This document shows, one piece after another, positions 6,001 to 9,000 of a stretch of 17,568 nt of DNA. The DNA is from a virus. Lineage: Duplodnaviria; Heunggongvirae; Uroviricota; Caudoviricetes. Each line of letters opens with the position of its first letter. Positions within the stretch are counted from its first letter, which is position 1. The position numbers were made by a program. The stretch is taken from IMG/VR virus record IMGVR_UViG_2698536618_000023; one strand, given 5' to 3'.

Positions 6001-9000
6001 TGATGCGCTGATGTACTTGCTGAAAAGGAATCGTTCCAGAAATGTATCTACGCAATATCCTGAACACGTTACCCAAAATGCCTGTTCCAGAATGATACTC
6101 ACCTATAAATAACCGTCAATATGACGCTCAAGTACTTTCTGTGAGATAATGCAGCGAATTGATACTGACAATTCAACGTCCGTCATCGCTCCCCCAATGT
6201 GTTGAGGTTAGGTAGAAATGATAACAAATACACCACTCCTGCCCCTGTAACCTCCCCTTTTTTATACGCTCATTTTTGCGCACTTTTTCGATCATTACGT
6301 ATCGGTTTCGTTTTGCGCTTCCTGTTGCGTTTCGTTTTTGAGAAAAATGCGCAGTTTTTTGCGCACTTTTTGAGGTGTCTATCCCCCTGCAAGCCGCGTC
6401 ATATCTGGCTTTGCTCTGTTTGTCTGTGTGATCGATTTTGTGATCAGTTTTATGATCGATTTGCGCACTTTTTTGCGCATTTTTTCAGGGATTTTTCACC
6501 CCATCGAAGAGGCTTCTAAGGGGCTGTGAAGTGGGTAGCATTTTGCTGTGATGGAAGGACTACCGCTACTGTCTGATAATGGTGACGGAGGCCGCTATGT
6601 TCGGCTCTGATTGCAGCCTGCCGTATATTCACCAATTTACCTGGCTGTTATTTCCATAACCCGTAATGTCGCCGATCCCGTCTGATTCCCATATCGTCAA
6701 CAGTCTTATTTACAGCATCCTGAAGTTCGCAAGGCATATTTCCCGCCGTCTGGCTATATGTTCTCGCTGCGGATCGGTGTGGGCCTCTTTCATTACGTCA
6801 AGCCAACGAGCGGCGGCTCTTCGCCATAGTCCCTGAGATTCCAGTTGTTCGGCTTTTTTATCAGTTATTGTGTCCATATTAACTTCCGTCTCTTCGCCCT
6901 GTTTCACCCCTGTACTTCGTGCCCCGTAAAGGATCTTCTTTTTTCTGGTCAATCCCCATATCTTTAAGCGTTCTGGTCGCTGCTGCCCTGACGGCGCATA
7001 CATGCCCCCACTCTGTTGTTTTTGGTCTGGTGGCTTTTGCCGTGCATTGCGCCCTTCGTTGGGTAATATAGTGCCTCTCTTCATCAGTTTTTGCCTGTCT
7101 GAACAATTCTCCCCAGCGTTCAGCAGCACGCCGCCAGAGGCCGCTATTCTCCAGCGCTTCAGCCTTGTCATCACGTATCATCTGTACCCCGCCGATTCTG
7201 TCCTTTCAAAATTTGTCTTATGGCTTATTGTATGAGGGATTCATCCTACAACAAGAAAGGTCACTATGAGACTGACGCAATACAAAAAAGAGATCCTCAG
7301 TTACTTCACTCCCGACAATCTGGCGTGGGTTACTGCCGAAATTGGCAGTCCGCCGTTTGATGTCTCCGGTGTGGCTTACCTGCTGCATGGTATGGATTCA
7401 TTCAACAGCCGGTATCAGATCGAATCAACAAGGCGCACGCTGGAAGCTATGGTGCGTGATGGTCTTCTTGAGCGGATTAATGTGTATGAGCGTCGTGAGG
7501 GCGCTGGTGATGGTGTTCGTCGAAAGGTGGCGCGTTATGGCCTGCCTGGTCATTCTGTTGTGGTGCGTGACGGTGAGGGCCGGAACGGTGCAATTGACGG
7601 CGAATGTATACGCATCAATGCTACAGATGTGGTGCTGGTGGAGGGGCAATAAAAAACCCTGAAAGATTTCTCCGGGTGCTCCAGTTGCACGTGGCAGAAA
7701 TCCTTCAGGGTCAGCCGTAACGGGCCTCTGTACAGAGGGCTCCAGTTGCCCAGAGATGAGCACCCGCTACAGCCTGTTGTGATAAGCCGCTTTACAGTGA
7801 GCTCCAGTTGCTCAAAGAGGCGCGTTTTTATCACAACCTGACCGCGATAACCCGCTGTACAGAGGGCTTCAATTGCCCAAAGAGGCGCATTCTTATCGCG
7901 GCATGACGAAATCACCGTGATGTTTTCGTCGTTCACTCATCCCGATGTGTGGGAGATGCACCGGAATGAGTGCCGAAAAGCCGCTGGCTGGCTTCATGCA
8001 GTCGGACTCAGTTGCCCGGGGCGAACACCATCAACGGCCTTTTGGTGGTGATTATAGCGAATCGCGATAATTGAGCAAATACGGTGATGAGATGCGTATC
8101 ACGGTAGCGCTAAATCGTCGCCTGCATCACTGAAGCTGTAATTTCTCCATTCATCCTGCGGATTAATCCCCATCTCTTTCAGCGTTCTGTCTGCGGCCTT
8201 TTTCACATCGCCAAAGGTGACCAGTTGTTCAGGCATACGACGGGTTTTACTGATGCATATCGCCCGACGTCTGGCAGCTTCCTCGCGTTCACTGTCCGTT
8301 TCTGCGTGAAGAAGAACCTCAGCCCATCGGGTCGCCGCACGTCGCCATAAACCGCGCTCCTCAAGTTTCTGTGCCACGCTGTCTGTTATCACTCTCACCA
8401 CCTCCCGTATCCTGCCGCTGGATGTTTTGCTGTTTTATCTGCTCCAGCCTCCACATCAGTTGTTCGCTGGCTGCTGCTTTCTCTTTCTCCGTGACTTCGC
8501 CGCAAGGTTGCCCGTTCAGGTCGTACCGTGGGCCACCAGCAATAATCGCCTTAAGGTATCGCGTCGTGTGAAGGTGTGAGGTTAATGCGCCACGTAATAC
8601 GCCATGACCAATCGCCAGTTCCCGCGCCTTCGCGTCCTGCAACATATCGTGTATCACGCCAGCCTTAAGGGGTTTTATATTCTCTGCCCCAAACAGTTCA
8701 GGCCAGTACTCAGCCAGTCGGTTTATCCTCCTGCGGTTTTTTCGCTGCCGCTTTGTCATGTGCTGCCACGGTATGCGCCGTGATGGTTTACGTGTGGTCT
8801 GGTCCTGTTGTGTGGTCTGCTGGTTCATGTTGTGCTTCTGTCATTCAGAACGGAATATCGTCAGAGAACGGGTCATCACCTCCCGCTGGTGGCTGATTTC
8901 CCTGCTGTCCGGTCTGTCGTTTTGCTCTTTCCTGTGCTTCGGTCGCCTTCCCCTGTTGCCCCCGCTTCCCGCCAGGACGCGCCGAACGGGCACTGATTAC

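Follow-up and report, generated by a model that had tools for sequence, protein, structure and literature searches.

Tandem hairpins in a satellite island of Shiga-toxin Escherichia coli and a predicted family of hairpin RNAs linked to the MuF_C domain in giant proteins of phages

The hairpin array and its minus-strand RNA gene

The DNA analyzed here, IMG/VR record IMGVR_UViG_2698536618_000023 (17,568 nt, referred to below as the window), is an integrative P4/phage-inducible chromosomal island (PICI)-like satellite island of Shiga-toxin (Stx) E. coli. From about position 3372 its right part is 98-99% identical to chromosomal islands of Shiga-toxin-producing (STEC) and enterohaemorrhagic (EHEC) E. 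coli, which are found beside tRNA-Gly or near ligB/yicG. Between a PerC-family gene on the minus strand and a converging plus-strand gene for a hypothetical protein lies an array of diverged tandem units. The minus strand of this interval (7648-8078) looks like a non-coding RNA gene, with a promoter, seven consecutive hairpins and a terminator, and the predicted RNA would be ~395 nt long (Table 1).

The original prediction had described tandem repeats of ~62 bp behind the plus-strand gene. These repeats are real and diverged, but their unit proved to be a hairpin rather than a 62-bp block. The motif GCTCCAGTTGCCC, with two or fewer mismatches allowed, has four sites, all on the plus strand, at 7678, 7739, 7801 and 7866 (spacing 61, 62 and 65), when 0.42 would be expected by chance and four were reached in none of 200 shuffles; a fifth, more diverged copy of this type is found at 8005. 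Repeat finding aligned three copies at 76-84% identity over 38 nt (spacing 62 and 65), identity among the array units is only 52-73%, and Tandem Repeats Finder did not call the array because the units are too diverged. The register first proposed, in which a unit starts with GCTCCAGTTGC and ends with TACAGAGG, had to be replaced by one in which the motif is at the tip of a hairpin and the sequences on either side of it form the stem. Every motif lies between inverted repeats (ACCCTGAAAGATTTCT/AGAAATCCTTCAGGGT, GTTGTGATAA/TTATCACAAC and CCGCGATAA/TTATCGCGG; in hairpin A, 16-nt arms that are 94% complementary), and therefore the real unit is a hairpin that carries the conserved motif at its tip. 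The fourth and fifth units are ~70 nt apart, and the gap between them forms two unrelated hairpins. As had been stated, the array is not of the CRISPR (clustered regularly interspaced short palindromic repeats) type, since its dissimilar units abut and there is no alternation of repeats and spacers. It is also not a dispersed intergenic family resembling the repetitive extragenic palindromic (REP) or enterobacterial repetitive intergenic consensus (ERIC) sequences, the possibility that had been named as fatal to a local function: in a search of 5426 E. coli genomes the median was one place per matching genome, and sites were found only in this type of island and at one site in a phage gene. 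The units had no match in plasmids at the megablast level, and the Rfam covariance models had none over 7648-8098 at E<=1.

A small RNA array was among the functions first suggested, and this suggestion is supported, but the array belongs to the minus strand and does not prolong the plus-strand gene at its 3' end. The strand assignment rests on the promoter, the U-run, the folding energy and the G·U bias. The putative -10 hexamer is located ~7 nt upstream of hairpin E, which is the same placement (5-9 nt) as in the phage copies described below, and the UUUUUUAUU after hairpin A is directly behind the stop codon of the plus-strand gene. When folded, a minus-strand RNA from ~8046 to 7648 forms seven separate hairpins (E, two spacer hairpins, D, C, B and A) with a folding energy of -178.1 kcal/mol (z -6.9), compared with -159.6 kcal/mol (z -4.6) for the plus strand, whose fold is tangled. 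The family tip, a 7-nt loop in GGGC-AAYUGRA-GCCC with compensation where the stem is changed, is present in A to D, and hairpin E has a 6-nt loop on a tip stem (CGGGC/GUCCG) with one G·U pair. All tip loops seen (AAUUGGA, AAUUGAA, AACUGGA and AACUGA) fit AAYUGRA and hence contain YUNR, the U-turn motif of antisense recognition loops.

Table 1. Features of the array and of the adjoining genes (CM, covariance model built from phage copies; MFE, minimum free energy)
Feature	Position	Strand	Remarks
Putative -35, TTGCTC	8073..8078	-	3/6 consensus match; 16-nt spacer; kept in all five satellite variants
Putative -10, TATAAT (perfect)	8051..8056	-	Kept in satellites; inferred RNA start ~8043
Hairpin E, 73 nt	7973..8045	-	Family member with insertion; 6-nt tip loop AACUGA; MFE fold; missed by CM
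Spacer hairpin S1, 39 nt	7934..7972	-	Non-family; inverted repeat, MFE fold; conserved among satellites
Spacer hairpin S2, 26 nt	7905..7930	-	Non-family; inverted repeat, MFE fold
Hairpin D, 62 nt	7841..7902	-	Tip GGGC-AAUUGAA-GCCC; CM 48.2 bits, E 2e-10
Hairpin C, 62 nt	7776..7837	-	Tip GAGC-AACUGGA-GCUC, inner stem compensated; CM 14.9 bits, tip only; MFE fold
Hairpin B, 62 nt	7713..7774	-	Tip GGGC-AACUGGA-GCCC; CM 25.3 bits, E 4e-4
Hairpin A + UUUUUUAUU	7648..7712 (hairpin 7655-7712)	-	Tip GUGC-AACUGGA-GCAC; CM 15 bits including U-run; MFE fold
Hypothetical-protein gene, 128 aa	7266..7652	+	Converges on RNA gene; stop codon abuts A-run/U-run
PerC-family gene	8099..8389	-	Directly upstream of array, same strand; Pfam PF06069, E 6.6e-29; RefSeq coordinates transferred from L001
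ProQ/FinO-domain gene	8412..8828	-	Pfam PF04352, E 2e-24; RefSeq annotation; two genes upstream of array

In the five satellite variants that were compared, promoter, A-run and spacer hairpins have all been conserved, and compensatory changes have occurred in all three helices of the family hairpins. At the tip, GGGC/GCCC is changed to GAGC/GCTC, GTGC/GCAC or TGGC/GCCA, and in the middle helix CGC/GCG is changed to TTC/GAA. For instance, the inner stem of hairpin C is GAGC/GCTC, versus GGGC/GCCC in variant L005, hairpin B shows a TGGC/GCCA compensation in L005, and compensatory changes in the middle helix also distinguish hairpin D between variants. The mismatches in the satellite family hairpins are of the antisense G·U type. 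One variant is shorter by exactly one unit, through recombination between C and D.

The suggestion of reiterated protein-binding sites found no support, as the stem sequences differ completely between copies yet stay complementary. A function at the DNA level, as such sites or as single-stranded DNA hairpins for satellite replication, priming or packaging, is highly improbable. A perfect 14-bp palindrome, CCTCTGTACAGAGG, at one unit junction, a unit spacing of about six helical turns, and the SSB and primase genes and iterons nearby would fit it. However, the palindrome is degenerate in the other units and absent from the family, there is no shared stem sequence, and the conservation of the promoter and U-run, together with the asymmetry between G·U and A·C mismatches given below, argues for RNA. 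Furthermore, the P4-type iteron TGTTCACC is clustered elsewhere: nine exact octamers on both strands, with copies of one mismatch besides, are found at 9552-9772 just downstream of the D5-type primase gene, and these we take to resemble the type I iterons of P4 ori/crr. There are 29 matches in the whole window against 14 expected, and the array contains no such cluster, its sole match having one mismatch.

The open reading frame (ORF) of the plus-strand gene, which starts with ATG, agreed with the original prediction; it corresponds to the RefSeq coding sequence WP_001241339.1 (hypothetical), which has the same coordinates in identical E. coli islands. Its ~375 homologues are all hypothetical and are spread across the Enterobacterales, and the protein had no match in Pfam (even at E<=10), PHROGs, PADLOC or the sequences of the PDB. 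An AlphaFold2 model (predicted local distance difference test score 71) consists of four helices and a beta-hairpin, and the top Foldseek matches, weak as they were (E>=0.05), were mostly winged-helix DNA-binding domains, so that the product is probably a winged-helix protein. The possibility that it is a diverged MuF_C domain was also checked and found no support.

Of the reiterated terminators or attenuators that had been considered, a terminator is retained for the last hairpin (A with its U6) and not for the other units. From its sequence, hairpin A would be an intrinsic terminator at which both the RNA gene and any transcripts reading through from the ssb-proQ-perC operon end. It could thus be asked whether the whole array has a local role in cis, as a terminator or stabilizing 3' untranslated region of that operon and/or in regulation of the plus-strand gene, its phage homology being only historical. 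We consider this unlikely. Hairpin A and its U6 do stand exactly where the converging genes end, the mRNA of the plus-strand gene, for which the consensus scan called no terminator, would continue into the array, and the array is directly downstream of perC on the same strand. In contrast, one hairpin suffices for termination, yet five family hairpins have been maintained through compensatory changes, along with a conserved TATAAT of their own, and hairpins D and E track distinct phage alleles. In addition, homologues of the plus-strand gene at 54-68% identity occur without the array, and the gene and its neighbouring array therefore do not form a fixed pair.

A predicted hairpin RNA family behind the MuF_C domain

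Judged from sequence and predicted fold, hairpins A to E are members of an uncatalogued, widespread hairpin RNA family that is tied to the MuF_C domain of giant phage proteins. Canonical copies are antisense within genes for giant 'polyvalent' virion proteins, in phages and conjugative elements of several phyla, and the same architecture was found in dozens of unrelated contigs in a search that covered viral contigs and one genome per species. The hosts are Beta- and Gammaproteobacteria, Rhodospirillales, many Clostridia, Allofustis and Lentisphaerae. Pattern scans for the family gave mostly chance matches and were therefore filtered by structure. On the sense strand, an A-rich run is followed by a hairpin whose outer stem is variable, whose next tier is a middle helix and whose tip, GGGC-UCCAAUU-GCCC, is invariant. 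We dismissed programmed frameshifting at the A-run, there being no consistent slippery heptamer and the hairpin beginning right after the run; mimicry of a tRNA anticodon arm or T-arm, as judged by eye, was likewise dismissed, since there is no U33 or purine-37 and the closing pair is C-G, not G53-C61.

A CM was built from 23 phage copies and used for an alignment of 38 matches. In this alignment, which was fitted to the model and so leans towards structure, 91.8% of cells were paired, compared with 68.6% in shuffles. The covariation score was 0.561, compared with 0.149 in shuffles (0 of 500) and 0.06-0.16 with the pairing partners slid, and the outer stem had changes on both sides in 9 of 9 pairs. 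An earlier alignment made with MAFFT only had compensatory changes in 9-10 of 13-14 predicted pairs. On the minus strand of the array the model, built from phage copies only, matched D and B and gave ~15 bits each (E ~0.2) at A and C. At the phage copies themselves no Rfam match was found at E<=1, the only hit being sok, elsewhere. Searches of a literature library found no match to the core sequence of the family, and nothing relevant on polyvalent proteins with antisense RNA or on FinO with satellites or PerC.

Just upstream of the phage hairpins, the antisense strand carries a sigma-70 promoter, which is often perfect (TTGACA-17-TATAAT in L096, L164, L209 and L212). The mean -35/-10 score of the phage copies was 8.84 out of 12 versus 6.49 in shuffles, and 54% of them, versus 3%, scored at least 9; the spacer is 17 nt nearly always, and 5-12 nt (mostly 5-9) separate the end of the -10 from the hairpin. 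TTGACA and TATAnT are retained although the residues encoded there change, and so the constraint is on the DNA. In the 10 nt after the hairpin, the antisense strand had a T count of 6.8 and the sense strand one of 2.2. Of 37 non-redundant elements, 26 were more stable in the antisense fold (Wilcoxon p=0.011), though the set had been chosen on the sense fold, and A·C mismatches, which are G·U on the antisense RNA, outnumbered G·T mismatches by 45 to 22 (p=0.007; strand-neutral arm alignment). Promoter, U-run, stability and mismatch type are four independent lines of evidence for the antisense strand, and the canonical element therefore reads as a compact antisense small RNA (sRNA) gene overprinted on a coding region. 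Homology, structure, covariation and strand bias were established here by computation, and the promoter and terminator by sequence motif.

Some phage copies consist of two tandem hairpins behind a single antisense promoter (L022 6464-6598 and L102 3363-3497, and also L023, L094 and L098), and these units are a small-scale version of the satellite array. Free-standing copies with promoter and U-run were also found outside long ORFs, in L133 at ~1130-1215 (Allofustis) and in L186 at ~4600-4680 (Butyrivibrio), and further ones in L130 at 55-230 (two in tandem, in a betaproteobacterial metagenome-assembled genome) and in L104 at ~3230-3310 (a small viral contig). Their neighbours are ordinary chromosomal genes in L133 and L186 and a phage terminase gene in L104; the copy of Allofustis seminis lies between unrelated genes and has TTTACT-17-TATAAT and a U-run. 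Since orphan copies occur elsewhere, those of the window are not unique to E. coli satellites.

With sensitive BLAST, parts of the array matched one site (~nt 5510-5530) in a gene for a ~2790-aa LPD38/LPD5 protein of 933W-type Stx phages and their relatives, and no other phage site. The plus strand of the window corresponds to the coding strand of this giant gene. Unit D is 84-86% identical to the 933W-type allele and unit E is 85% identical to the PhiR5_2 allele, and thus these two units are closer to two different Stx-type phage alleles than to their sibling units; unit B matches the S19-651 allele at the tip and is 75% identical to it overall. The phage segment is translated (e.g. SRDNLLHRGLQLPKGEHSYRG), and its flanks form a perfect 10-bp inverted repeat. 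Other alleles have flanks that are wholly different in sequence and still complementary, which points to selection on nucleic-acid structure, and a coding remnant as the sole explanation of the units was rejected because it leaves the complementary flanks unaccounted for. As there is no MuF_C and no long ORF at the array, its units are orphan copies. To judge by these matches, the array appears to be a set of RNAs matched to several phage variants and kept by the satellite.

It might nevertheless be a decaying relic of one or more giant polyvalent genes, or a set of recombination scars with Stx phages, and have no present function. We regard this as quite improbable. In related elements (L256, 10001-17309, and L257) a homologue of the plus-strand gene (67-68% identity) is followed by a giant gene encoding a 2280-aa DarB-like antirestriction protein with N6-methylase and SNF2 helicase domains; the array thus stands where relatives of the plus-strand gene have a gene for a giant injected protein, and the window may formerly have had such a gene at this place. 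The peptide ...PLYRGLQLPK... could still be read from every unit, in frames that shift, unit number varies by unequal crossing-over, and the inner stem of unit A is broken in L005. Nevertheless, only hairpins survive and no other coding sequence, the DarB-like gene of the relatives contains no hairpin element of this kind, and the promoter and U-run are conserved, as is pairing through substitutions in all three helices between satellite variants, with mismatches of the antisense G·U type.

In the giant protein of 933W, the Pfam domain MuF_C (PF18819) occupies residues 1750-1839, and the peptide encoded by the hairpin follows at ~1843-1863. Among ten diverse giant proteins, MuF_C ends 6-7 residues before GLQLP in nine, and the tenth has an InPase domain at this position. 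In the Stx-type phages L003, L004 and L007 the giant genes are ~100% identical except for a cassette of MuF_C and hairpin (about -500 to +60 nt), whose downstream breakpoint falls exactly at the conserved antisense promoter. MuF-C has been described as a phage domain of the BECR (barnase/EndoU/colicin E5-D/RelE) fold and a predicted RNase or RNA-binding domain, and has been placed in the PBECR class (Iyer et al. 2017, PMC5512222). According to a BECR preprint, the catalytic His is preceded by Lys, and the MuF_C copies next to the hairpin keep a K-H motif as well as a nearly invariant His. The orthologue of the giant protein in phi24B, gp47, is an abundant virion protein and proposed ejection protein (bioRxiv 10.64898/2026.04.10.717836).

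Such proximity allows for an RNA decoy or antitoxin, in which the hairpin binds the MuF_C RNase domain or is its pseudo-substrate, and the array consists of orphan RNA 'immunity' units that would counter this domain in the giant proteins which various Stx-type phages make or inject. This explanation seems to us somewhat unlikely. It would account for the position of MuF_C directly before the element in 9 of 10 proteins, the retained K-H motif and His of a PBECR-class domain, the exchange of domain and hairpin together as a cassette, the near-invariance of the 15-18-nt tip from Proteobacteria to Firmicutes, the orphan copies in non-coding host DNA, and phage Mu, whose MuF-C is the Arg 'inactive' variant and which has no hairpin (n=1). 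On the other hand, in one of the ten cases the element follows the InPase domain instead, and linkage to MuF_C is equally expected for an antisense antitoxin of type I-like action. Classic features of antisense RNAs are seen in the layout of promoter, hairpin and U-tail, in the YUNR-type loop and in the FinO neighbour, and stems that copy specific phage alleles are not needed by a protein-binding RNA. By extension, phage RNase domains of the BECR fold (MuF_C/PBECR) could have their missing immunity factor in the hairpin RNA, an antitoxin encoded opposite the gene of the toxin domain. On this view the array of the satellite would form an 'RNA immunity island' of orphan antidotes that act on these domains allele by allele, and the free-standing copies on chromosomes of Firmicutes and other phyla would serve as host RNA defences. 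This is a conjecture, and on the whole we doubt it.

A possible trans-acting antisense role

The explanation that we favour, tentatively, is that the array may encode a multi-allelic, trans-acting antisense RNA aimed at the MuF_C/hairpin module of Stx-type phages. That the RNA is transcribed, what its target is and what effect it has are points that we infer, as follows. The sigma-70 promoter (TATAAT at 8056-8051) would drive a ~395-nt RNA that ends at hairpin A and its U6. The near-invariant AAYUGRA tip loop, of the YUNR U-turn type, could form a kissing contact with the complementary loop in the mRNA of the phage giant gene, from which pairing would spread through the allele-matched stems. 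The ProQ/FinO protein encoded two genes upstream, a candidate chaperone of the hairpin RNA by virtue of its gene neighbourhood, might help or stabilize this pairing, and the outcome would be that less of the phage ejection/effector protein is made. The phage's own copy would be a type I antitoxin-like or OOP-like regulator of the RNase-like segment.

Several observations weigh against this proposal. The array has a promoter only before E and a U-run only after A, and for this reason all of its hairpins are assigned to one transcription unit. The -35 of this promoter matches the consensus at only 3 of 6 positions, and a consensus promoter/terminator scan of the array called nothing; the scanner treats such a -35 as too weak, and terminator loops longer than 8 nt fall outside its rules. 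Hairpin E was missed by the CM, and no close phage allele for units A and C was found in the sample. Units A to C have a C where pairing with the phage loop needs a U, giving one C·A mismatch in the loop-loop contact, and in unit D the compensatory changes relative to the 933W allele reduce complementarity. All array-bearing genomes among those listed have 1-3 further matching places (2-4 places per genome), and the presence of Stx-type prophages in the same genomes may be due to lineage. A protein partner would account at least as well for a tip conserved across phyla and for the free-standing chromosomal copies, and the link to FinO is guilt by association. Finally, the table of Hfq crosslinking and analysis of cDNA (CRAC) for O157 Sakai (Tree et al. 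2014) contains no sRNA at the expected position in Sp5, a negative result that is tempered by the fact that an RNA not bound by Hfq would not be expected there.

Surroundings, known systems and significance

The other genes of the island on the minus strand encode an integrase, a helix-turn-helix protein, Rha/Ant proteins, the D5-type primase, SSB, the ProQ/FinO and PerC proteins, a YeeE transporter and a Q-type antiterminator. At 6710-7174 (minus strand) the window has a single ORF of 154 aa with a PerC domain in its C-terminal half, where RefSeq gives two separate short PerC genes in related islands; this may reflect a fusion, a frameshift or the choice of start site. Between the YeeE-like and PerC genes, non-coding DNA at 6348-6485 contains runs with a 12-bp period (TGCGCACTTTTT, TGTGATCGATTT and TTTGCGCACTTT), which may be operators or iterons. 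A 19-20-bp repeat, TTTAGGGGATGATCCCTCGC, in 2.9 diverged copies at 3933-3989, lies within the island-homologous part, ~0.5 kb from the left end of that part and ~150 bp past the 3' end of the Q antiterminator gene. Outside the island, upstream of a glycoside-hydrolase-15 gene, there are an AT-rich 47-bp tandem repeat at 983-1183 (4.2 copies, 87% matches) and a perfect 13-bp repeat, GTCATCGCCTATG, at 1554-1611 (4.5 copies).

The hairpins make up an RNA family not described before, arranged here in a new way, and the molecule is of a known kind, the structured antisense sRNA. One close comparison is with FinP/FinO of F-like plasmids and the sRNAs of ProQ/FinO proteins. Like these, the array RNA, in its predicted fold, is made up entirely of stem-loops, the last of them a terminator hairpin followed by a U-tail; the element also carries, on the same strand, a gene for a FinO-domain protein, and a loop-loop contact is proposed. 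However, the array has no sequence or Rfam relationship to FinP, and its presumed target is on a phage and not in cis, the only local overlap of the RNA being with the 3' end of the plus-strand gene. It has five diverged units instead of the two stem-loops of FinP. The allele specificity of FinP resides in its loops, whereas in the array the loops are constant and the stems variable.

The canonical phage copies resemble lambda OOP, P22 Sar, CopA, RNAI and the countertranscript RNAs (ctRNA) in being compact antisense genes of promoter, hairpin and U-run within a coding region, and the tip loop of the family fits their YUNR U-turn type. They differ in that the hairpin family is new in sequence and is located inside a giant late structural/effector gene, behind MuF_C, spans phyla, and also occurs as orphan tandem arrays on a satellite. 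In structured regulatory RNAs of satellites and phages there is a further likeness to P4 CI, P1 C4 and IsrK, two C4 and two IsrK RNAs being present in this very island, but these are at another locus (12531-13278), have another structure, and their Rfam models fail to match the array. The region containing them, 12531-13291 on the minus strand (C4 antisense RNAs of 74 and 70 bits, IsrK-like RNAs of 50 and 38 bits), also has c4-a1b1 target-site matches, which makes it a duplicated RNA immunity module of the P1/P7/P4 type, and it overlaps in part with a long Ash/AntA ORF (12766-14289).

Among toxin-antitoxin (TA) systems, type I (Sok, Sib and RatA) is similar in that the phage hairpin is predicted to be a constitutive small antisense RNA over the mRNA of a potentially toxic, RNase-like segment, and different in that the 'toxin' would be one putative domain of a ~2800-aa protein. 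A genuine sok RNA (113 bits), unrelated to the hairpin, is found beside a Hok/Gef gene in the 933W prophage of EDL933 (L003 10019-10193, minus strand), ~1.2 kb beyond the 3' end of the giant gene and ~4 kb from the hairpin site. The array also recalls the type III systems (ToxI), as tandem, short structured RNA units that could counter an endoribonuclease; in contrast to these, its units are far from near-identical (52-73%) and the putative RNase is on another element. No ToxN-like gene was found beside the array, where the neighbours are PerC, ProQ/FinO, SSB and the probable winged-helix protein, and PADLOC gave no match. By analogy only, the array can also be compared with the orphan immunity arrays of contact-dependent inhibition (CDI), Rhs and type VI secretion (T6SS) systems, which share diverged, allele-specific 'antidotes' without a cognate toxin and a cassette swapped within a conserved large gene; here the antidote would be an RNA, not a protein, on the strand opposite the toxin gene.

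If the interpretation given here is correct, a widespread and unannotated family of structured RNAs with their own promoter and terminator, extending from Proteobacteria to Firmicutes, is antisense within giant effector genes, and would offer a first handle on the control or neutralization of the little-understood 'polyvalent' proteins. The satellite-encoded ProQ/FinO protein would gain a concrete role, and regulation of the ejection protein of phi24B and 933W would become experimentally approachable. A satellite of Stx E. coli would then possess a multi-allelic RNA array, independent of CRISPR, that is directed against its phages; recognition of several phage variants in this manner, by a parasite of phages or by its host, would be new.

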